42,179 nucleotides of DNA from Candidatus Bathyarchaeia archaeon (lineage in GTDB: Archaea; Thermoproteota; Bathyarchaeia; Bathyarchaeales; Bathycorpusculaceae). The stretch lies in NCBI GenBank assembly GCA_038882655.1, contig JAVZNT010000006.1, forward strand, positions 1 to 42,179, written 5' to 3'. Below, one piece after another: positions 3,138 through 36,235 of the stretch (the first letter of the stretch is position 1; each line of letters opens with the position of its first letter). A program made the position numbers and the translations under genes. The notes beneath the pieces were generated by a model. It did no database searches, was not told the origin of the DNA, and saw nothing but the letters and a program-made list of their open reading frames with translations.

Positions 3138-3734
3138 GTGTTAAAATTGGAAAACAAAGTTATAATTGGTATAGACTTGGCTGGCAAAGAGAAGAACCCC
3201 ACGGGATTAGCAATTTTACGAAACAAAAGCGTGGAAACATGCCTAATTTGCACGAACAAGGAAATTTTTGAAAAGGTAATTCGTGCAAACCCAAAAATCG
3301 TGGCAATAGACGCGCCACTTAAACTTCCAAAAAATGGGATTTTTAGAAAAGCGGACAAGAAGCTAATCAAAAACGGTTACCGCGTTTTTCCACCTGGTTT
3401 ACCGGCTATGAAAACGTTAACTCGTCGGGCAATTAGGCTAAATAGGTTAATAACAGAGGCGGGTATACAAACAATAGAAGTGCATCCCACCTCAACGAGA
3501 AAGGCTTTAGGCATGCCAACAAAAGACTGGAAAGTCATTCAAAATATTCTAAAACGTATTGGCCTAGTCGGATCGCTGAGTAAGCACCCATTAACGCCGC
3601 ATGAAATAGACGCCATAACAGCAGCCCTAACTGGTTATCTTTACATGAAAGGCCTAGCAGAAAGCGTGGGAGACCGCGAAGAAGGCTACATTGTAATTCC
3701 AATAAAGCGTGATTGGAGAGAGCTGAGGCTATGA
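3138..3734 (+). CDS. DUF429-like predicted nuclease (RNase H fold)
   Basis: IIGIDLAG, VAIDAPL, IEVHP and HEIDA motifs. Stop overlaps the DP1 start (ATGA). Confidence 0.8.
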   Translation: MLKLENKVIIGIDLAGKEKNPTGLAILRNKSVETCLICTNKEIFEKVIRANPKIVAIDAPLKLPKNGIFRKADKKLIKNGYRVFPPGLPAMKTLTRRAIRLNRLITEAGIQTIEVHPTSTRKALGMPTKDWKVIQNILKRIGLVGSLSKHPLTPHEIDAITAALTGYLYMKGLAESVGDREEGYIVIPIKRDWRELRL

Positions 3735-5314
3735 ACTTTTCTGAAAAACTTCAAAGGGCTGTAGAACTCACTATTTCGGCAGGGTATCAACTTAACAAAG
3801 AGGCCTTCGAGTTCTTAAATGAGGCATCTGCAACCGAAGATCCGGTAGAAATTATAAGCAAAGCTTTAGCCAAAATAGAGACATTGAAGGATAAGCCGCT
3901 TTTCATTGAAAGAAGCTTTCTAGAAGAGCTTGTAAAAACGCCCGGATACATTGAACGCTCCGATTTAGCACCGCAGATTAAGGAAGATGTGTCCCAACAA
4001 GCAATTCCTCAAGGGCAACATGAGCAGCCGCAATTAATCCTTGAGGGGAAGAGGCTTTTCCGTCCATACGCAAAAGAAGTGGATGCTGAAATTAAGATAA
4101 TTGAGGACTCTGGTGGCAAGCTAAGCTCAAGCGGGACAATGGAAGATTACCTTGAATACTTTCGGGATAGGTTTAAGCGAATCGAAAAGTTGTTGAAGCA
4201 AAGAATAGACACGAGGGGGGCCGTTTCAATTGCTGACGCGTTAAGAGCCCCTTCCAACATGAAGCTTAAAGTTATTGGCATGGTAATGGAGAAAAGAGAG
4301 GCAAGACAAAAAATTCTCTTAACATTAGAAGATTTAAGTGCAAATGCCACTGTTCTGGTGCCGCAAAATGCTCCACCAGACCTTTTAAACAAAGCTAGAA
4401 GCCTTTTGTTGGATCAGGTTGTCTGCGTTGATGTTACGAAAACGCGTGGAAACTTGTTAATAGCTGAAGAAATTATTCTTCCAGACATCGCCCCAAAAAG
4501 TCAAAATAAGGCTCCGGTTCCGGTTTACGCCGTGCTCACTTCAGACATGCATGTAGGCAGCGTAAAATTTCGGGAAGAACTTTTCAGTAAGTTTGCTTCG
4601 TGGCTAAAGGGCGAATATGGAAATGGGCAAATGCAAGAAATAGCTAGCCACGTGAAATATGTTTTGATAGCCGGTGACATTGTTGATGGGATAGGAGTCT
4701 ACCCAAACCAAGCAAAGGAACTAGCCATAAAAGATATTTATGGGCAATATAGGGTAGCTTCCAAACTCATCAAGCAAATCCCGGACTACATAGAAGTGAT
4801 AATTATTCCGGGAAACCACGACGCCCCAAGAAAGGCTTTACCCCAACCGCCAATATCCGACGCCTTTCTAGAGAAGTTACATGACGCAAGCAACATTCAC
4901 TCTGTCGGAAACCCATGCCTCCTAAGTCTTCACGGCGTCGAAGTCCTCATGTATCACGGCCGAAGCCTCGACGACATAATCTCTATAGTTCCGGGGATAA
5001 ATTATACTCATCCAGAAAAGGCTATGACATTGCTTTTGCAGTGTCGCCACTTGGCGCCAGTTTATGGGGGGAAAACGCCGTTGGCGCCTGAGAGCAGAGA
5101 CTGCCTTGTTATAGAGCGGGTGCCCGACATTTTCCATGCGGGCCACATCCATACAGTTGGGCACACAAATTATAGAGGTGTAACTATTATTAACTCTGGT
5201 TGTTGGCAAGAGCAGACAGACTACATGCGAAGGCAAGGGTTTAGTCCCATGCCGGGCTTAGTTCTTGTGGTAAATCTCCAAACTTTGGGTGTTAGAATTA
5301 TCCCATTTACCTAA
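3731..5314 (+). CDS. polD1: DNA polymerase D small (proofreading exonuclease) subunit DP1
   Basis: YFRDRF, OB-fold region, and calcineurin-like phosphoesterase motifs SDMHVGS, AGDIVDGIGVYPNQ, PGNHD, YHG, RHLAP, GHIH, NSGCWQ. Confidence 0.96.
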   Translation: MNFSEKLQRAVELTISAGYQLNKEAFEFLNEASATEDPVEIISKALAKIETLKDKPLFIERSFLEELVKTPGYIERSDLAPQIKEDVSQQAIPQGQHEQPQLILEGKRLFRPYAKEVDAEIKIIEDSGGKLSSSGTMEDYLEYFRDRFKRIEKLLKQRIDTRGAVSIADALRAPSNMKLKVIGMVMEKREARQKILLTLEDLSANATVLVPQNAPPDLLNKARSLLLDQVVCVDVTKTRGNLLIAEEIILPDIAPKSQNKAPVPVYAVLTSDMHVGSVKFREELFSKFASWLKGEYGNGQMQEIASHVKYVLIAGDIVDGIGVYPNQAKELAIKDIYGQYRVASKLIKQIPDYIEVIIIPGNHDAPRKALPQPPISDAFLEKLHDASNIHSVGNPCLLSLHGVEVLMYHGRSLDDIISIVPGINYTHPEKAMTLLLQCRHLAPVYGGKTPLAPESRDCLVIERVPDIFHAGHIHTVGHTNYRGVTIINSGCWQEQTDYMRRQGFSPMPGLVLVVNLQTLGVRIIPFT

Positions 5315-5844
5315 GATAGACCACGCGCAATTAGCCTAACAACACGGAGGGGTTCCGGTACACGGCCACAAACAACAAAATTTGCTATCAAGCGGCTGGC
5401 CCATTCTTTTTCCGCACCAACAACCTCAAAAAATAATGGAGGCCCCTCATCTAACACTCTTATTTCGTGGATAGGACCTAATTTTGCAAAAACCTCCCAT
5501 CGTTTTTGCCAATCTCTAAAATGGCGCATAAGTGCTCGTTTAACCGCCTTGTTATCGGGCTTCGTCTTCGCCACAACAATAATTGGCTTGCAAAACTCTT
5601 CGTAGAGAACTATGGGGTTTATTATGTTAAAGCCGGCAAAGGATACCCCAGCAAGCATAACCGCCCCAAAATCCCATTGTTTTAAAATGTCGGCGGCTTT
5701 TTCTGTTGCATCCAAGCCGTCAACGGTTATCCGGTTGAAAGCCACATCCTCAATCGTTAACCCCTTAAAAAGAACAGCGGCTAAAAGAGCCTTCTTAGTA
5801 ACGCCTTTCACAAAGCTTCCCTCTTCAATTCCTACTACCCGCAT
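5311..5844 (-). CDS. DUF99 family protein (endonuclease V-like fold)
   Basis: VVGIEEG, ITVDGLDAT, GVSFAGFNII and PEPLRVVRLIARG motifs. Start uncertain (5844-5874); overlaps the cdc6 3' end. Confidence 0.85.
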   Translation of the reverse strand: MRVVGIEEGSFVKGVTKKALLAAVLFKGLTIEDVAFNRITVDGLDATEKAADILKQWDFGAVMLAGVSFAGFNIINPIVLYEEFCKPIIVVAKTKPDNKAVKRALMRHFRDWQKRWEVFAKLGPIHEIRVLDEGPPLFFEVVGAEKEWASRLIANFVVCGRVPEPLRVVRLIARGLS

Positions 5845-7075
5845 CTTTTGAAAGGCATTTTGGTTCATAATCAATCAAGCGCCAAAGTCTACTGTCATTA
5901 GAGAAGGCTTCTTTAATAAGGGTGCGCGTTACCTCCATGCGGATTTTCTTTGTTCGCCCATAACGCCCCATGCTTACAACCTGCGCGTTCAGCAGCCCCA
6001 AAGCGTCAAGTTCGTTAACCAAAGTGCTTACACGCCTCTGGGTTAAAGGCGTTACAGCCAATTCGCTGCAAAGCTCATTATACACCTCGTATATTTCACC
6101 TGTGACCGTCCGGTAACCATTTGCCCTAACAAGGTGATAAACACTTAACATTACAAGCTTTGAATGTAGAGTCAAATTTGCCAAAGCATCAACAATTCTA
6201 TTATGCTCTATCAGTCTCTCAGCCTCACGGACATGCTCCTCTGTAACAGTGCTTGCACCTTTACGTTCTGCAACTTCACCCGCAACCCTCAGCAAATCCA
6301 GAGCCCTCCGAGCATCACCATGCTCAGCAGCGGCCAAAGCCGCGCAAAGGCTTAAGGCGCCCTCGCTAAGGGACTCTTCGCGAAACGCCATCCGCGCCCG
6401 CTCATCTAAAATATTCCGCAACTCAGCCGCATTGTAGGGCCTAAAGACCATTTCCTCCTCACTTAGCGAGCTTAAAACTCGAGGATCCAAGAATTCTTTG
6501 AGGCGCAGGTCATTGGATATGCCGATTATAGAAACTTTGCTTTGAGTTAATGTTTCGTTAATTCTTGTAAGTTCGTATAGAAGGAGGTCGCTTCGTGTTT
6601 TTACTATAGCGTCCACTTCGTCGAGGGCTATAATCAGTATCCTTTTAGCCGTATCCAAGCCTTGCTTAAACCTGTCAAAAACCTCGCCCAGAGATAGCCC
6701 AGTGAATGGGACTGTTTGGCGAATACTCTGGCATAAGCTTGCGAGAACCCGGTACTCCGTTCCCGCTAAGCGGCAATTTGCGTAGCAGAAACTTACAGGT
6801 GCTCCGATCTCTTTAGCCTTAGCTTCTAAACGGTTTAAGACATATTTTGTTACAGCCGTCTTACCAGTCCCCGTCTTTCCGTAAACAAAAATATTGGAGC
6901 AGCGTGCACCCTTCAAAACCGGTGCTATAGCCTCCCCAAGTCTTCTAATCTGCTCTTCACGATGAGGAAGCCTTTCAGGCAAATAATCGTGACGAAGAAC
7001 TTCCCGGTCTTTAAACACGCCTACCGTGTTGCAAAATCTTTCAAAGACCTCATCGAGTATGCCCATGTCGTTCAT
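5825..7075 (-). CDS. cdc6: Orc1/Cdc6 replication initiator
   Basis: YLPERLPHRE, Walker A GKTGTGKT, Walker B LDEVD, GDARRALDLLR and C-terminal wHTH (GRYGRT). Likely start is ATG 7075 after GGAGGAAGG. Confidence 0.97.
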   Translation of the reverse strand: MNDMGILDEVFERFCNTVGVFKDREVLRHDYLPERLPHREEQIRRLGEAIAPVLKGARCSNIFVYGKTGTGKTAVTKYVLNRLEAKAKEIGAPVSFCYANCRLAGTEYRVLASLCQSIRQTVPFTGLSLGEVFDRFKQGLDTAKRILIIALDEVDAIVKTRSDLLLYELTRINETLTQSKVSIIGISNDLRLKEFLDPRVLSSLSEEEMVFRPYNAAELRNILDERARMAFREESLSEGALSLCAALAAAEHGDARRALDLLRVAGEVAERKGASTVTEEHVREAERLIEHNRIVDALANLTLHSKLVMLSVYHLVRANGYRTVTGEIYEVYNELCSELAVTPLTQRRVSTLVNELDALGLLNAQVVSMGRYGRTKKIRMEVTRTLIKEAFSNDSRLWRLIDYEPKCLSKDAGSRN

Positions 7076-7224
7076 TGTCTTCCTTCCTCCTCTGTGCAGT
7101 TTCATTTCAAAGCGTGTACGCCTTTACTTTCAGAGTGCCAAAATAAGGCATGTCATACAGAAAAGTGAACAAGTAACAGAAAAATCCTAAAATTCGATGG
7201 TTGGTTTGATGCGAGAAGGGAGAC

Positions 7225-7245
7225 ACCCCTTTGCTTCAACTGGAA
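7225..7245 (-). promoter_or_regulatory. Origin recognition box ORB1
   Basis: Minus strand reads TTCCAGTTGAAGCAAAGGGGT, matching the archaeal ORB pattern TTCCAG..GAAA plus a G-string. Confidence 0.85.
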
Positions 7246-7411
7246 ACTCTTAAGTTTAATTGTGGAAGTTTGTGTTTCTTCAGGAAGAAAGAAAATACTC
7301 TGAAAGGTTAGAACTATCTTAAAATTAAAAATATTCTCGTAGAAGTTTTTATACCTAAACTGTAAAATACTTCGTAACCAACTTTTGTTAGACTTTTACC
7401 TTTAAACAATC

Positions 7412-7433
7412 TTCCAGCGGAAACCATGGGGTA
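7412..7433 (+). promoter_or_regulatory. Origin recognition box ORB2
   Basis: TTCCAGCGGAAACCATGGGGTA. Confidence 0.9.
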
Positions 7434-7627
7434 ACTCCCTACACGGTTCACTATGCAAACTGGGCAAGGGTGCTTGCACTGCAGAGCATCTGTCACGATG
7501 CAGAAAGAGGAATCCTATTTTTGTTCACGGTTTGTGAAAATATTGTGAAGTTGACTTGGTTTTTGCGTTTTTGTTTCCTTAGTTTCTATAATGTTGCCAT
7601 TTTTATGCCTCTTCTCTGTGAAAACGC

Positions 7628-7649
7628 TACCCCATAGTTTCTACTGGAA
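7628..7649 (-). promoter_or_regulatory. Origin recognition box ORB3
   Basis: Minus strand reads TTCCAGTAGAAACTATGGGGTA; 19/22 identical to ORB2 and inverted relative to it. Confidence 0.9.
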
Positions 7650-7843
7650 AGAGCAAATATAGTTTCCATTTTCCCTATTTGCATACAAGAACTTTTCTGT
7701 GAAGTTTGTGAGCCTGAATCTTTGAAAATTAAGCTCCTTACATCATTTCCGGTTTAAAATAGGCTTTTCAAATTGCCTAGGTTCACCGTAATAGCTATAT
7801 CTTGCGAAGTGCAAACTTGTGAAAAGAATTTACAGGTGCCATC

Positions 7844-8281
7844 ATGGTGCCAGCGAGGAAGATGCGGATCGAGGTATTCGACAGTGAAGGCAATAAATAT
7901 AGCGTAGCTTTTGAGGGGCAGATTACACGCGATAAAGCACTTCGCTTATTAGATCTGGTGGAGTTATTGGGTGGAGTTACAGCAAGTGGAGCCAATTCAG
8001 GTTTTAACCTTACAACTGTTGAAAAATCAAAATATGATAAGCTGTTAGCTGTTCTCCAGAGGCATTTTCCAATGGTATGGTTCTCATCAAAGGAGGTTCA
8101 AGCAGCCTACGAACAAGAGTTTAATGAGCCTATAAACCTTAGCACGGTAGCTACTTACCTTTCCAGAATGGCTGGCAGGGGGGTGCTCGTAAAAACTGGC
8201 GCCTCTAATCGCCTCAAATACAAAATTGCACCCAGTCCTCCCCGAGTCATGGTGAAGCACCATATACCAGACGAGGGTTAA
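7844..8281 (+). CDS. Uncharacterised protein with small N-terminal beta-beta-alpha domain and C-terminal winged helix
   Basis: C-terminal half FSSKEVQAAY..INLSTVATYLSRMAGRGVLVKTG..LKYK has the BlaI/CopY-like wHTH pattern. A Gly/Ser-rich linker separates it from the N-terminal domain. AGGTG Shine-Dalgarno upstream. Confidence 0.75.
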   Translation: MVPARKMRIEVFDSEGNKYSVAFEGQITRDKALRLLDLVELLGGVTASGANSGFNLTTVEKSKYDKLLAVLQRHFPMVWFSSKEVQAAYEQEFNEPINLSTVATYLSRMAGRGVLVKTGASNRLKYKIAPSPPRVMVKHHIPDEG

Positions 8282-8287
8282 TAGCTT

Positions 8288-9001
8288 CTAAGAAGTTTCT
8301 GTCTCAGCCCTCTTTAGAAATTTTTCCATTTCCTTCTTCACACAGTATTTAAAGGGGATTTTACTCGAATCTCTTTCTAAATAGCCCTCCTCGTAAAGCT
8401 TCTTCATAAGCCTGGCAGTGTGCTCCCTGCTAAGCCTAATTCTCTCTTTAATTTCCGGAGCTGTTTTAGGGCCCTCAGCGACCAACATCCCCAGCACCGC
8501 TAACTCTGTTTCTGTTAACTGGGCTAATGCTTTTTCTCTCTTTATTGGTATGGCGGTTTCAACTCCGAGCTCGGATGGGCTAGGCATCTTTTGGGTTCTC
8601 TCTTCAATAACTGAAATTTTAGCGAGAACTTCTTTATGTGCTTCGGTGATGTCACTCGTCTGTTTTTCTACATCACTTAGCCGAGTAAATAGCCGCTCCT
8701 TATCCGCGAAAAGCGTTTTTGCTTTGTCTTCCAAGAGTTTAAGCCTACTCTCTAGCTCTTTTACAGCCTTTAATGCATCACTGCCATTGGCAGAAGCCGC
8801 CTCAACTTTGTAAGAAATAGTTTGTAAACTGTCGGTTATGCGCTTTAACTCCCTACTAAAACTTAAAAGTATATCATTAAAAGCTTCCTTAGCCTTCTCG
8901 TATTTTTCCCTTATTCTTACAAGGTTCCTGTAATAACCAACAGCAGCACCCACCGCCGCAGTCAAGAAAACACATGAAACAACTATTAAAAGATCAACCA
9001 T
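8288..9001 (-). CDS. Membrane-anchored coiled-coil protein with C-terminal winged helix (MarR-like)
   Basis: Hydrophobic residues 4-24 followed by YYRN..R.R, then about 110 aa of heptad-like helical sequence, a PSPSE linker, and LTETELAVLGML..GPKTAPEIKERIRLSREHTARLMKKLYEEGYLER..KIPFKY. Confidence 0.8.
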   Translation of the reverse strand: MVDLLIVVSCVFLTAAVGAAVGYYRNLVRIREKYEKAKEAFNDILLSFSRELKRITDSLQTISYKVEAASANGSDALKAVKELESRLKLLEDKAKTLFADKERLFTRLSDVEKQTSDITEAHKEVLAKISVIEERTQKMPSPSELGVETAIPIKREKALAQLTETELAVLGMLVAEGPKTAPEIKERIRLSREHTARLMKKLYEEGYLERDSSKIPFKYCVKKEMEKFLKRAETETS

Positions 9002-9268
9002 GTGATGCCTCCTGTGACTTCTGCGTAGCAGGTTGTGACCTTACCATGTTGCATCACACATCACAGTTTAAAATCGAGAACATATAAGCATTGTGGTTCT
9101 TTATGAAATGTATGACATCACAAGTCACAAGCAACATGCACGAACCTTAGCTACGCGAAAGGAAAAACATTCTTATTACCCTCTTTTGGCTATTTAGCCC
9201 TGTTTTCTGCCTTCTTTTCTTATATATGGAGCAGCTATGATTTTTAGTTGTGTGATTTGTGATGTCAC
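9001..9268. repeat. Array of TGTGAY / CATCACA heptad-type repeats
   Basis: TGTGA at 9001, 9013, 9034, 9251, 9258; TCACA at 9054, 9061, 9118, 9125. Three tandem pairs have a 7-bp period. 9113-9129 and 9251-9267 form a 17-bp inverted repeat with one mismatch. Confidence 0.85.
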
Positions 9269-9741
9269 GTAAAACCTTCAGACGGGTTTGAAAGCGTTTT
9301 TAAGCCGCGTTCGAGTTCTTCTCTTAGCATTTTAATGAGTTTTATTTGTTCCTCTGGTTGTTTAGCTTTGTTTGGCAAGTCCTTGTGGGCGTTTATGTAT
9401 TCCTGCAGTTTGTTTGCAATTTCAATATATTGATCAAGAGTTGTGCTTTCAAAGATTCCCAAATACCCTAAGAGCAGCACTGTGTATATTGACTTTATCA
9501 CATTTTCTTGCGCCTGTTTTAAAGTTCTATTGAAGGCTCCGCGGCTTATTTTTGCCTTTGTTAGCCGTAAACTGGCTTTTTCATCGTATTTTAGTGATTT
9601 ACCCGAAACATTTTCGGCTAAAACGTCTATTAGCAATGTTTCTAGCTGCGTTTTTGTCAGATGACTGTTTTTTGTCAGTATTTTGACTATTGGGTCTTCC
9701 AGAGACGTTTTCAGCCATAGTTGTACGCTGTTCTTTAACAT
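9265..9741 (-). CDS. Uncharacterised all-helical protein with probable HTH (Tfx/sigma region 4-like pattern)
   Basis: SHLTKTQLETLL...KISRGAFNRTLKQAQENVIKSIYT pattern; GAGGAG Shine-Dalgarno upstream. The fold assignment is inference. Confidence 0.65.
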   Translation of the reverse strand: MLKNSVQLWLKTSLEDPIVKILTKNSHLTKTQLETLLIDVLAENVSGKSLKYDEKASLRLTKAKISRGAFNRTLKQAQENVIKSIYTVLLLGYLGIFESTTLDQYIEIANKLQEYINAHKDLPNKAKQPEEQIKLIKMLREELERGLKTLSNPSEGFT

Positions 9742-9770
9742 TCTCTACTTTTCTCCTCAGAGTTGTGCTT

Positions 9771-9794
9771 GTTGAATACACTTTTGTATACAAC
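9771..9794. promoter_or_regulatory. Palindromic operator-like site between a TATA-like box and the 9741 start
   Basis: GTTGAATACA-CTTT-TGTATACAAC (9/10 inverted match), adjacent to TTTTAAAA at 9796-9803. Confidence 0.55.
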
Positions 9795-9885
9795 CTTTTA
9801 AAGAGTTTTGCTCGATATCAAAAACTACGCCTTCACGTCGCAACCATTATATGCTAATCTGTATAGCACATTGTGAGGAGAGCGC

Positions 9886-11067
9886 TTGGCATTGCAATTT
9901 AAGGCAGCTGAACGTCTAAAAAATATAAAGCCCTCTGGAATTCGCCGATTTTTTGCTTTGGCCCAAGAAGTTCCCGGCATTATTAATTTAAGTGTTGGAG
10001 AACCGGATTTTACGCCACCCACACACGCTCTAGAAGGAGGCTGGAAGGCCGCATTAGCAGGTAAAACACACTACGCTCCAACTAATGGCATTCCGGAACT
10101 TAGAGAGGCTTTAGCTGAGAAGGCCCATAGAGAATATGGCCTTCAATATGACCCAACCTCTGAAGTATTGGTCACCGTCGGCGGAACGGAGGCAATTTCC
10201 CTTGCTTTGACGGCCTTAGTTAATCAAAATGATGAAGTGTTAATTCCTGATCCCGGTTTTGTCTGTTATGAGCCTAGCGTTAGATTGGCAGGCGGCATCC
10301 CCGTTTCAATTCCTATTTTAGAGAGAAATGGGTTTAAGCCGTCAATTGATGACGTGACGTCACTTATCACGAAAAAATCACGTGTGATGATTCTGAACTA
10401 TCCAAACAATCCTACTGGAATCGTCCTATCATATGATGAACTTAAATTATTAGCCAAAATTGCTGTTGAGCGTGATTTGATTGTGATTTCCGACGAGGTT
10501 TACGAAAAAATAATTTATGATGGAGAAAGGCACCACTGCATTGCAACTTTTCCGGAAATGCGGGAGCGCACATTGGTTGTGAACTCTTTTTCCAAAACCT
10601 ATGCTATGACAGGCTTAAGGGTCGGCTATGTTTACGGACCTAAGGACCTAATTGCCCCCTTGTGGCTTTGCCACCAGTATCTTGTTGCTTGTGTGGATAC
10701 TTTTGCGCAGTATGCCGCATTAGCCGCCTTAAAGGGGCCGCAAGACTTTGTTAAGGAAATGGCGGCTGAGTTTGATAGGCGAAGACGCTTTGTTTTTAAG
10801 AGACTGAACGAGATTGGTGGATTTAGCTGCGTTCTTCCTAAGGGCGCCTTTTATATGTTCCCAAGCATAAAGACTTTTAACATGACTTCAGAGGAGTTTG
10901 CCCAATTCATACTTAAAGAGGCCCGTGTTGCAACTGTTCCGGGCTCTGCTTTCGGTTCTTATGGCGAAGGTTACCTTCGGATTTCTTATGCCGCAGCTTA
11001 TGAGCAGTTGGAAGAGGCTTTCAACCGCATAGAGAAGGCCGTACAAAAGCTTAAGGGCTCTCTTTAG
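9886..11067 (+). CDS. PLP-dependent aminotransferase class I/II (aspartate aminotransferase-like)
   Basis: LSVGEPDF, NYPNNPTG, SDEVY, SFSKTYAMTGLRVG and GYLRISY motifs. Confidence 0.95.
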   Translation: MALQFKAAERLKNIKPSGIRRFFALAQEVPGIINLSVGEPDFTPPTHALEGGWKAALAGKTHYAPTNGIPELREALAEKAHREYGLQYDPTSEVLVTVGGTEAISLALTALVNQNDEVLIPDPGFVCYEPSVRLAGGIPVSIPILERNGFKPSIDDVTSLITKKSRVMILNYPNNPTGIVLSYDELKLLAKIAVERDLIVISDEVYEKIIYDGERHHCIATFPEMRERTLVVNSFSKTYAMTGLRVGYVYGPKDLIAPLWLCHQYLVACVDTFAQYAALAALKGPQDFVKEMAAEFDRRRRFVFKRLNEIGGFSCVLPKGAFYMFPSIKTFNMTSEEFAQFILKEARVATVPGSAFGSYGEGYLRISYAAAYEQLEEAFNRIEKAVQKLKGSL

Positions 11068-34900: not shown

Positions 34901-36235
34901 ATGGCTTTAGAAAGGCTTGGCACTTCACTTCATGAGGCTTTAAGGAAGCTTTTCAGAGCCGCTGTTGTCGATGAGGCTGCCGTTAAGGAACTTGTGAGGG
35001 ACGTGCAGCGGGCGCTTCTGCAAGCGGACGTGAACGTTCAACTCGTCTTAGACATTTCTAAGCGCATAGAGGAAAGAGCCCTCAAAGAGAAGGTTCCGCC
35101 TGGAATTTCGCGTCGCGAGCACGTGATTAAAGTTGTTTATGAAGAGTTGACACGCTTTCTAGGTGAAAAGCCGGTTCCATTAAAGGTTGAGCCTGGTAAA
35201 AAGAAGGTATTGATGCTTGTGGGCATTCAAGGCTCTGGGAAGACCACCGCTGCGGCTAAGCTTGCAAGATATTTTCAGAAAAGGGGCTTGAAACCCGCTT
35301 TGATATGTGCTGACACCTACCGCCCAGGCGCCTTTGACCAGCTTCAGCAACTTGCCAACAGAATAAATGTGCCAATTTACGGCGACCCAAAAGCCAAAGA
35401 CCCAGCCAAAATTGCGTTTGAGGGGCTGAAGCAGTTCAGCGACAAGGACATAATCATAGTTGACACGGCTGGACGCCACAAAGAAGAACGCGAACTTATC
35501 AAAGAAATGAAGATGCTTGAGGAGAAAATCAAGCCGGATGAGGTTATGCTTGTCATCGATGGAACCATTGGACAACAAGCTCTTGTGCAAGCCAAAGCCT
35601 TTAACGAAGCAACATCTATAGGCTCTATACTTGTGACAAAGCTTGACGGCTCAGCTAGAGGCGGAGGCGCCTTGTCCGCTGTTGTGGCTACTGGTGCGCC
35701 AATAAAGTTCATAAGCGCCGGTGAAAAGGTTGAGGACATCGAGCCCTTTGTTCCATCCCGATTTGTGGGCAGACTCTTAGGTATGGGCGATCTGGAAACT
35801 CTCATTGAGAAGGTTCGAGAAGCCGAAATCAAAGTTCCGGAAAAGAAGGCTAAGGCTATTTTAAGCGGCAAGTTCACGTTGACAGACATGTACGAACAAT
35901 TTGAAGCCATGAAGGGCATGGGGCCTTTCCGAAAACTCTTGAAGATGTTACCCGGCATGTCTTACGATGTGCCTGAAGAAATGCTTGACATAGCTGAGGG
36001 CAAGCTGGAAAAGTGGCGGGTTATAATCCAATCGATGACTCCGGCGGAGCGGGAGAACCCCAAAATGTTTAACGCTTCAAGGATTAGGCGTGTTGCGCGG
36101 GGCTCCGGAACCAGCGAAAAAGATGTGAAAGAACTTTTGAAACAGTATGTTCTCATGCGGAAAATGCTGAAAACATTGAGAAGGAAGAAGAGGCTTCCCT
36201 TCTTTGGGAAGGGGCTGCCTGTTGACGTAGGCTAA
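34901..36235 (+). CDS. srp54: Signal recognition particle protein SRP54
   Basis: LLQADV, GIQGSGKTT, DTAGR, TKLDG, LLGMGD and M-domain SRIRRVARGSG motifs. Confidence 0.98.
   Translation: MALERLGTSLHEALRKLFRAAVVDEAAVKELVRDVQRALLQADVNVQLVLDISKRIEERALKEKVPPGISRREHVIKVVYEELTRFLGEKPVPLKVEPGKKKVLMLVGIQGSGKTTAAAKLARYFQKRGLKPALICADTYRPGAFDQLQQLANRINVPIYGDPKAKDPAKIAFEGLKQFSDKDIIIVDTAGRHKEERELIKEMKMLEEKIKPDEVMLVIDGTIGQQALVQAKAFNEATSIGSILVTKLDGSARGGGALSAVVATGAPIKFISAGEKVEDIEPFVPSRFVGRLLGMGDLETLIEKVREAEIKVPEKKAKAILSGKFTLTDMYEQFEAMKGMGPFRKLLKMLPGMSYDVPEEMLDIAEGKLEKWRVIIQSMTPAERENPKMFNASRIRRVARGSGTSEKDVKELLKQYVLMRKMLKTLRRKKRLPFFGKGLPVDVG

Follow-up and report, generated by a model that had tools for sequence, protein, structure and literature searches.

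Three small genes beside a predicted replication origin of Bathyarchaeia and a repeat array at the predicted promoter of one of them

What function might hold a set of small, uncharacterized genes in place beside an archaeal replication origin? The question is raised by contig JAVZNT010000006.1 of a Candidatus Bathyarchaeia archaeon (GenBank assembly GCA_038882655.1), whose 42,179 nucleotides are here called the window. Three such genes, P1, P2 and P3, adjoin the initiator gene cdc6 and an origin of the origin recognition box (ORB) type, and an array of TGTGAY repeats lies between P2 and P3. We find it clearly more probable than any other single explanation, and a little better than evenly balanced overall, that these genes form an autoregulated cassette of DNA-binding-type proteins, in which the array would be the operator set of P2 itself. 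The analysis establishes the gene architecture, its conservation and synteny, the uniqueness of the array in the genome, its placement at a conserved promoter-like block and its co-occurrence with P2. The cassette is ancient, mostly origin-adjacent, and common to Bathyarchaeia and part of Nitrososphaeria. The features on which the argument turns are as follows.

5825-7105, minus strand: cdc6/orc1 initiator gene, 426 amino acids (Pfam Cdc6_C, 2e-29; Cdc6_lid, 1.6e-26; AAA_22)
7106-7843, no strand: oriC-type intergenic region of 738 bp, with ORB-like elements and an AT-rich stretch
7844-8281, plus strand: P1, open reading frame of 145 amino acids
8288-9001, minus strand: P2, open reading frame of 237 amino acids
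9001-9263, no strand: P2-P3 spacer of 263 bp, with the repeat array
9265-9741, minus strand: P3, open reading frame of 158 amino acids (stop codon at 9265-9267)

The repeat array and the predicted P2 promoter

A motif scan of the spacer and an alignment of related spacers identified the following elements.

9053-9065, minus strand: site A, tandem doublet
9117-9129, minus strand: site B, tandem doublet
9251-9263, plus strand: site C, tandem doublet abutting the stop codon of P3
9082-9097, minus strand: predicted P2 core promoter, consisting of ACCAYAA (ACCACAA in the window, 9097-9091) and a TATA-like TTATAT (9087-9082)
9013, 9034, 9251 and 9258, plus strand: forward copies of TGTGAY
9053, 9060, 9117 and 9124, minus strand: reverse copies of TGTGAY
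9001: extra TGTGAY copy overlapping the P2 start codon
9001, 9013 and 9034, plus strand: single hexamers of the array

A preliminary description of the window had reported a repeat array between P2 and P3, and the counts bear this out. The spacer contains eight copies of TGTGAY, compared with 0.144 expected from the genome-wide rate of 0.547 per kb on both strands (Poisson probability 4e-12). The tandem form TGTGAYNTGTGAY, with a 7-bp phase, occurs three times in the genome to which the window belongs (1,024,976 bases, 84% complete), always in this spacer, which is also the sole place in that genome with a cluster of at least three TGTGAY copies within 80 bp. A similar confinement is seen in four near-complete relatives (G004, G013, G021 and G040): of their 11 exact copies of the tandem, 10 fall within the P2-P3 spacer of the orthologous locus, bringing the total for the five genomes to 13 of 14. 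A reversed control pattern gave three matches in the relatives' genomes, and in another relative, G059, the exact tandem was not found.

Tandem sites with one mismatch are scattered along the chromosomes of the four relatives, and their numbers (13, 13, 21 and 25) resemble those of the reversed control (15, 10, 19 and 26). Because these sites stay at the control level, the exact tandems appear to be a dedicated site set rather than part of a regulon or of a set covering the origin domain. A dispersed origin-domain set was therefore rejected at zero to one mismatch. As an observation in its own right, the one-mismatch copies on G040:C1 are distributed unevenly between strands (5 forward and 20 reverse; control, 12 and 14), with no switch along the chromosome. 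A structured RNA in the spacer was also considered and ruled out: positions 6900-10000 have no Rfam match at E values up to 1, and the RNA-fold z-score of the spacer is -0.79. Given the lack of an Rfam match and of an unusual fold, the array probably acts as DNA.

The position of the doublets is informative. Alignment of 16 of the 31 order-level spacers, in gene orientation, revealed a conserved block, ACCAYAA...TTTAAAT. The aligned spacers begin with site C at the P3 stop codon, about 100 variable nucleotides, and the site B doublet with a conserved GTCA tail. The ACCAYAA/TATA-like block comes about 19 nucleotides later, and about 16 nucleotides separate it from site A, beyond which are two or three single hexamers in reverse orientation, then GGAGG and the ATG. 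Site B thus lies 19 nucleotides upstream of the promoter block, and site A lies 16 nucleotides downstream. Archaeal transcription starts about 25 nucleotides after the TATA box. Given the usual archaeal geometry of the B recognition element (BRE) and TATA box, site A should cover the expected start and site B should lie just upstream of the BRE/TATA element. Accordingly placed on both sides, the putative operators wrap the predicted P2 promoter, whose role we infer from this geometry. A scan for bacterial-type promoters and terminators gave background numbers and is not applicable to archaea.

This arrangement is maintained in relatives. Order-level spacers (31 loci from 30 genomes) have four to nine hexamers, with a median of seven, and at least one doublet in 28 of the 31; the positions within the array are kept across the order. 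At the class level, 13 of 20 loci were examined for a cluster of four hexamers per 150 bp, which was present in 6 of the 7 loci with P2 and in none of the 6 without it. A scan of 16 phylum-level loci from other families of the phylum (11-17 kb each) led to a similar picture: by our reading of the table, the densest TGTGAY cluster coincides with the P3-P2 unit or immediately precedes it in 11 of the 14 loci with P2, and has no such position in the 2 loci that lack P2. Loci without P1 keep doublets (for example, L063 and L064, with a 10-bp period), and the Nitrosotalea spacer again carries ATCACA repeats. Because the array tracks P2 rather than P1 or P3, P2 is its likeliest binder.

P2 as a probable membrane-anchored winged-helix protein

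The preliminary description gave P2 an N-terminal transmembrane helix, a long coiled coil and a C-terminal winged helix-turn-helix (wHTH), and hydropathy, heptad analysis and Pfam all agree. The predicted transmembrane helix (residues 4-22; Kyte-Doolittle 19-residue maximum of 2.48) is preceded by three residues and followed by a net positive stretch. Residues 25-139 are free of proline, and the a/d heptad positions are 75-100% hydrophobic to about residue 115. The winged helix (approximately residues 160-221) scores above the cut-offs of four Pfam models (PF01047, PF01978, PF12802 and PF13463), namely TrmB (30.1 versus 25.6 bits), MarR (28.5 versus 24.6), MarR_2 (27.5 versus 27) and HTH_27 (24.4 versus 22.2); with the NCBIfam Lrs14 model, whose cut-off is 90 bits, P2 scores 26. 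Across 20 orthologs, the helix L.REH.AR..KKLY is invariant and the coiled part is variable. The Nitrosotalea P2 keeps TREHTSRMLKKL and retains the helix REHT.R..KKL.

Relatives of the cassette proteins are called "hypothetical protein" or "MarR family transcriptional regulator" (the latter for relatives of P2 in NCBI), or carry labels assigned automatically, among them "chromosome segregation ATPase", that derive from the coiled coil. Classical regulators of the MarR, TrmB and Lrs14 types are soluble proteins of about 100-150 amino acids; a classical MarR-family regulator, of about 140-150 amino acids, dimerizes through the helices at its N and C termini. We rejected P2 as a classical MarR-family regulator over its whole length, as the helix at residues 4-22 and the heptad-rich helix at 25-139 precede the domain. 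P2 has a winged-helix domain in common with MarR, TrmB and Lrs14 regulators, to which it adds a membrane anchor and a heptad-rich helix of about 115 residues.

With at least one predicted transmembrane segment as well as a DNA-binding domain, likewise predicted, P2 belongs, on its predicted architecture, to the transmembrane transcription regulators (TTRs). Like P2, TTRs such as ArnR/ArnR1 of Sulfolobus and bacterial ToxR/CadC combine a predicted transmembrane segment and a DNA-binding domain in one protein; these regulators act from the membrane. P2 differs from them in having no sensor domain outside the membrane, a long coiled coil, an oriC-linked family and a genome-unique tandem operator. 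TTRs are common in archaea, with about four per genome, and are mostly single-pass proteins (PMC10269533, Demey et al. 2023).

We propose that P2 would be a single-pass protein with an N-terminal membrane anchor and a cytoplasmic heptad-rich helix, probably a dimerizing coiled coil, and that its winged helix would bind TGTGAY hexamers arranged as 7-bp-phased tandem doublets; the duplex TGTGATGTGTGAT is named as a candidate DNA partner for a P2 winged-helix dimer. P2 would occupy site B upstream of the TATA-like box, site A at the expected start, site C at the end of P3 and the single hexamers of the 5' leader, and this binding would autoregulate its own synthesis. P1, with its winged helix, and P3, a putative helix-turn-helix (HTH) protein and the constant member of the set, would be separate DNA-binding partners or regulators. 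As a by-product, the locus, which lies 1.6-2 kb from the AT-rich region of the origin, would be at the membrane whenever P2 is bound. Judged from sequence, P2 is probably the binder, its binding may repress, and the protein probably resides in the membrane.

Several observations weigh against this proposal. For a regulator with no strong sites except those at its own promoter, it is hard to see what the output would be. Simple autorepression would call for fewer than the ten or so hexamers found across 260 bp, among them a doublet that stands 120 bp upstream where P3 ends, and the layout resembles centromere-like arrays. Direct repeats phased at 7 bp are uncommon as targets of winged-helix proteins that bind as dimers. 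Deep conservation beside oriC, in non-operonic orientation, is unexplained by plain autoregulation, and the HTH of P3 is a sub-threshold match in one ortholog. Finally, the co-occurrence of array and P2 is partly trivial, because loss of the gene removes its promoter.

Three of these features, namely the lack of any other strong site, the roughly ten hexamers and the linkage to oriC without an operon, keep alive the idea of a tether. P2 would then be an origin anchor or segregation device, a functional analogue of RacA, RocS and RicO, with autoregulation as a side effect: the winged helix would bind the array, the coiled coil would oligomerize, the transmembrane helix would fix the origin region to the envelope, and P1 and P3 would serve as accessory DNA-binding or adaptor proteins. 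We consider this explanation unlikely. P2 does have all the parts of a tether (transmembrane segment, long helix and wHTH), but in Caldarchaeales-type relatives the P3-P2 pair lies away from cdc6 and P2 has about 146 amino acids, without the long helix. Its sites do form one cluster, at a distance of 1.6-2 kb from the AT-rich part of the origin, where the exact tandems of the five genomes are concentrated, but no dispersed sites surround the origin, compared with nine ricS sites for RicO (bioRxiv 10.64898/2026.03.06.710092), and oriC lacks TGTGAY. The cassette does stand beside cdc6/oriC across two classes though it is not one operon, but P2 was not found in some Bathyarchaeia that retain cdc6, P1 and P3.

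RacA of Bacillus subtilis, RocS of Streptococcus pneumoniae and RicO of Staphylococcus aureus resemble P2 in combining a small DNA-binding domain, a coiled coil and membrane contact; according to bioRxiv 10.64898/2026.03.06.710092, they bind specific sites near the origin and hold origin DNA at the membrane, so that this combination is known to work as an origin anchor. However, their N-terminal domain is of the MerR type, an amphipathic helix or a DivIVA contact is found at the C terminus, and their sites, of which there are several, are dispersed through the origin domain, whereas P2 has an N-terminal transmembrane helix, a C-terminal MarR/TrmB-type winged helix and one cluster in its own promoter. 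P2 has no detectable homology to these proteins: no MerR-type family is among its Pfam and NCBIfam matches, its DNA-binding domain is C-terminal so that the domain order is reversed, and the exact tandems of the five genomes are confined almost wholly to the P2-P3 spacer instead of occupying multiple sites.

The number of repeats and their spread on both sides of the promoter also recall the parC centromeres of plasmids. The parC layout is that of type II plasmid partition, in which ParR autoregulates from the repeats. ParR-parC and SegB resemble the P2 array in that the repeats are beside or around the promoter of the binder's gene; the centromeric sequence to which SegB binds adjoins SegB's own operon (PMC12139799). 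Unlike those systems, P1, P2 and P3 have no linked NTPase of the ParM, ParA or SegA type, so a tether here would lack a linked motor ATPase. In agreement with the preliminary description, Pfam and NCBIfam detect neither a ParA-type ATPase above the Pfam cut-off in the window nor, at E values up to 1, a ParB, ParR or SegB-type domain in P1, P2 or P3. One ParA-type signal in the window, at 35231, is below the cut-off (22.5 bits), and the AAA_31 and CbiA matches that exceed it are on contigs C13, C10 and C3.

In its fullest form, this explanation would make P2 an independently evolved archaeal origin anchor on a centromere-like array, binding probably in cis as it is made, which we doubt. An extension, in which P1 (at the TGTGAA repeats of oriC) and P3 would couple anchoring to initiation or segregation, seems to us just as doubtful. 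The preliminary description had suggested that the module anchors the origin or regulates initiation; synteny and the tether-like parts of P2 speak for that suggestion, and the placement of the array as a promoter operator, its absence from oriC and the losses in some lineages speak against it.

P1, P3 and the repeats in oriC

The region between cdc6 and P1 contains the following elements, found by repeat search and motif counts.

7225-7246, 7412-7433 (inverted) and 7628-7649: three ORB-like 22-mers
about 7250-7400: AT-rich stretch (26% GC) between the first two ORB-like elements
7533, 7544, 7617, 7698 and 7818, plus strand: TGTGAA repeats in the P1-proximal half (within 7533-7823)
7707, plus strand: TGTGAG in the same half

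The 22-mers were compared with the ORB consensus. An Orc1/Cdc6 gene adjoins inverted ORB repeats around an AT-rich region, which is the arrangement by which an archaeal oriC is recognized, and the 738-bp region has the standard anatomy of a cdc6-adjacent archaeal origin; the origin is thus a predicted one. The statement that three uncharacterized genes lie beside an origin is thereby upheld, as the open reading frames, the Pfam assignment of cdc6, the ORB-like 22-mers and the stretch of 26% GC all agree with it. Shine-Dalgarno-like sequences (GGTG, GGAGG and GAGGAG) precede the ATG codons of P1, P2 and P3. A second Orc1/Cdc6 paralog, 32% identical to the cdc6 product of the window, is encoded on another contig (G000:C12:6338-7441), and most relatives carry at least two Orc1/Cdc6 copies.

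The core of the array had been said to recur in oriC. This is correct for the 5-mer TGTGA but not for the 6-mer, as the cdc6-P1 region has five copies of TGTGAA and one of TGTGAG but none of TGTGAY. Among the 185 order-level copies of TGTGA in oriC, 91% have A as the next base, and among the 172 spacer copies 89% have C or T there. A single motif linking the P2-P3 array and oriC was therefore rejected at the 6-mer level, with only the 5-mer common to both.

The oriC repeats have properties of their own. All TGTGA copies in oriC of the window are forward (6 versus 0 reverse), and TGTGAA is biased likewise across the 31 order-level loci (147 forward versus 23 reverse). Spacings of 11, 73 and 81 bp are conserved in relatives. 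In the genome, oriC is one of two places with at least four TGTGAA copies per 300 bp, and the sole one with five. The repeats surround the third ORB-like element (ORB3), the last copy being 26 nucleotides upstream of the P1 start codon, and the cdc6-promoter side of oriC is free of them. They may be operators of P1, accessory sites of the origin, or both. In Nitrosotalea, inspection by eye of the cdc6-P1 region (L091:1243-1687, which corresponds to the named locus L099) revealed ORB-like elements followed by (C/G)GTGAA-like words, as well as several GTTAAC-type words near P1.

P1 had been described as a two-domain wHTH protein, which the structural model does not support. Instead, an AlphaFold model using 20 orthologs (pLDDT 75) predicts a beta-beta-alpha N-terminal domain (residues 4-42), a disordered linker (44-59) and a single winged helix (62-128), which in the orthologs includes an invariant helix, LST..TYL.R. 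A Foldseek comparison with the PDB placed the winged helix closest to the DNA-binding domains of Fur, RosR, BlaI/MecI, F93 and AspA (E values of 2e-3 to 2e-2); AspA ranks 24th among many winged-helix neighbors. A P1 profile found nothing better than an E value of 0.14 among PDB sequences. P1 was also considered as a repressor of the BlaI/MecI/CopY type and rejected: it is below the Pfam cut-off for Penicillinase_R (PF03965; 15.3 versus 22.6 bits), and the resemblance is one of wHTH fold (E value of about 1.5e-2). Some P1 relatives bear a BlaI/MecI/CopY-type name in NCBI.

These data bear on another explanation, in which the cassette controls initiation or the expression of cdc6. P1, which is divergent from cdc6, would bind the TGTGAA copies of oriC and modulate firing or the access of Orc1/Cdc6, and signals from the membrane or the cell cycle would reach this control through P2 and P3. 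We judge this quite unlikely. The repeats are orientation-biased and conserved in position around ORB3, and their cluster of five is unique in the genome, but all copies are upstream of the P1 start (the last by 26 nucleotides), which fits autoregulation of P1, and none is on the cdc6-promoter side. The divergent arrangement of cdc6, oriC and P1 is the most constant part of the synteny, and P1 offers a winged helix with an invariant helix; however, searches of five genomes from lineages with P3 and P2 all failed to detect P1, an empty answer that carries little weight.

Accessory origin-binding proteins are known in archaea (PMC12141716). UBP of Sulfolobus, a basic nucleoid protein of 111 amino acids, binds the ucm motif in oriC, and it binds through beta-hairpins at hundreds of sites (PMC12141716). 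UBP and ucm are thus a model for P1 and TGTGAA, as a non-initiator protein at an accessory oriC motif. However, P1 is a winged-helix protein whose fold is unrelated to this beta-hairpin binder, and its candidate TGTGAA cluster is genome-unique.

P3, the best conserved of the three proteins, is harder to classify. Its model is all-helical (pLDDT 83), in line with the preliminary description, and the HTH-like character that was also ascribed to it depends on sub-threshold matches in one ortholog, with no corresponding fold in the PDB. The best structural match to the PDB has an E value of 2.7, which is not usable, and a P3 profile gave no matches to PDB sequences. The P3 of the window has no Pfam match to sigma-70 region 4, HTH_10 or DUF134 at E values up to 1. 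The ortholog at L085 has sub-threshold matches to DUF134 (0.043), Sigma70_r4 (0.044) and HTH_10 (0.082) that span nearly the whole profiles. In the ESM Atlas, P3 retrieved Bathyarchaeota "hypothetical" clusters and one lead with a score of 0.80 and a sigma-70-region-4-like signal, and one P3 relative is named "UPF0251" by JGI. A deep search with a P3 profile hidden Markov model gave 310 clusters at E values up to 0.001, of which ten distant ones were scanned and found to have no Pfam family and almost no names. P3 may carry an HTH like that of sigma-70 region 4, HTH_10 or DUF134 at approximately residues 28-82, followed by a helical C-terminal part, and it is plausible that it binds DNA.

The weak sigma-70-region-4-like signals of P3 also suggest a sequestration switch, in which P2 would hold soluble P3 at the membrane, as membrane anti-sigma factors do with sigma factors, and release it upon a signal, P3 being the true regulator of targets elsewhere. 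Many sigma/anti-sigma operons have overlapping or abutting genes, and so do P3 and P2, the most constant pair of the cassette, in Caldarchaeales-type relatives, where both genes are on one strand with P3 first (an overlap of 43 nucleotides in L083 and a gap of 1 nucleotide in L084). On the other hand, P2 has a conserved DNA-recognition helix of its own, which a pure anchor would not need; it has essentially no extracytoplasmic sensing part, with three residues before the transmembrane helix; and P3 persists without P2 in several lineages. We regard the switch as the least probable of the alternatives considered. A complex prediction for residues 140-237 of P2 with P3 (score 0.01, mark 0.32) gives no evidence either way.

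Conservation, neighbors and significance

Among 41 genomes of the same order, P1 was found in 33, P2 in 32, P3 in 36 and cdc6 in 40. The four genes have the order and orientation seen in the window in 18 of 19 more distant order-level genomes; in the 19th, they are split over two contigs, one of which ends just past P1. Within the class, P3 occurs in 164 of 201 sampled genomes (110 of the 120 of good quality), almost always as a single copy. Of 20 diverse loci around P3 that we chose from these 164, 16 have cdc6 at a distance of no more than 9.5 kb, 14 have P2, 14 have P1, and 9 have all four genes. Searches elsewhere in five genomes without P2 beside P3 yielded weak matches to the coiled part alone, and searches in five genomes without P1 beside P3 found none, the latter being a weak empty answer.

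Phylum-wide, 117 of 251 genomes contain a P3 relative, and among the 16 phylum-level loci cdc6 is next to P1 in 8 and not in the other 8. Of 55 named Nitrosotalea/Nitrosopumilaceae loci, 49 carry the whole cassette, among them that of Candidatus Nitrosotalea devanaterra LN890280.1. Conservation of the cassette of cdc6, oriC, P1, P2 and P3 thus extends across Bathyarchaeia and to Nitrosopumilaceae; Caldarchaeales-type relatives, in which P2 is short as noted above, do not share it. The P3(-P2) pairs without origin linkage belong, going by named clusters, to Candidatus Caldarchaeum and Calditenuaceae. The test of synteny with cdc6 that had been proposed earlier is therefore largely positive at the order and class levels and in the Nitrosotalea/Nitrosopumilaceae loci. 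Relatives of P1, P2 and P3 carry the NCBI names Candidatus Bathyarchaeia or Bathyarchaeota. Of the words sampled from positions 7000-9900 of the window, 73-93% are present in runs X1-X5 (hot springs metagenome, three studies).

The genes that flank the locus are listed here.

3713-5314, plus strand: DNA polymerase D small subunit (DP1, Pfam)
5311-5874, minus strand: Endo_dU (Pfam)
9886-11067, plus strand: aminotransferase

The reading frames of cdc6 and Endo_dU, both on the minus strand, overlap by 50 nucleotides (5825-5874), and the TTG start of Endo_dU may be placed too far upstream.

Conservation of this neighborhood is relevant to a last explanation, namely that P1, P2 and P3 are ordinary regulators, with targets and roles unrelated to the origin, that hitch-hike in a conserved region. 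The surroundings of oriC (DP1, Endo_dU and cdc6) are indeed conserved anyway, and the linkage is lost in half of the phylum-level loci. A precedent is found in haloarchaeal OapABC (now ArvABC), which, like our trio, is a small gene set by the main origin that was long suspected of a role in replication, although its proteins are unrelated to P1, P2 and P3. OapABC consists of a small GTPase, DUF2073 and DUF2072 and drives vesicle formation, so OapA is origin-linked and yet serves this other process (PMC10927574). Given this precedent, origin linkage alone is a weak guide to function. However, the five genomes have no other strong tandem copy, so that no regulon outside the locus is visible, and the synteny of these non-operonic genes persists across classes. 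None of the three proteins matched a characterized regulator with unrelated targets. We rate hitch-hiking as very unlikely.

Relatives differ in what lies between the genes. About 2.6 kb separates P1 from P2 in 11 of 18 order-level relatives, and in the three that were examined (L037:3554-6137, L045:3499-6031 and L050:4018-6595) this insert encodes a protein of 333-351 amino acids and a P-loop protein of 519-527 amino acids. Pfam assigns the second member of one such pair to HerA/DUF87-type ATPases and gives no family for the first. The pair was not found in the window genome at its 84% completeness, so the HerA-type ATPase is not part of the module here. At loci of two class-level lineages (L061:2869-6192 and L067:10072-13045), hypF (about 775 amino acids) and an XRE-HTH/CBS-type gene of 190 amino acids lie between P3 and P2, and the L061 insert has further TGTGAY clusters and 10-bp-phased doublets spread through it.

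Membrane-anchored winged-helix regulators and autoregulatory repeats are known already; what is new is an origin-linked, class-spanning cassette with a genome-unique tandem operator. No prior description of the cassette or of the array was found in our search of open-access literature, supplementary tables aside.

The ways in which archaea that lack SegAB place and partition their chromosomes are poorly understood, as is the control of origins beyond Orc1/Cdc6. The cassette described here is near-universal in Bathyarchaeia and occurs also in Nitrosopumilaceae, including cultivated ammonia oxidizers. A membrane-anchored DNA binder at one origin-proximal locus is a concrete hypothesis that involves few proteins and one 260-bp fragment. 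If the doubtful tether were real, archaea would have their first described link of this kind between chromosome and membrane, as well as a partition element that operates with no ParA-type motor, and the origin region of Bathyarchaeia and of the ammonia-oxidizing Nitrosopumilaceae would be pinned to the cell envelope. Even if tight autoregulation is the true function, three widespread families now called "hypothetical" or "MarR-family" gain a defined cis element and a context.

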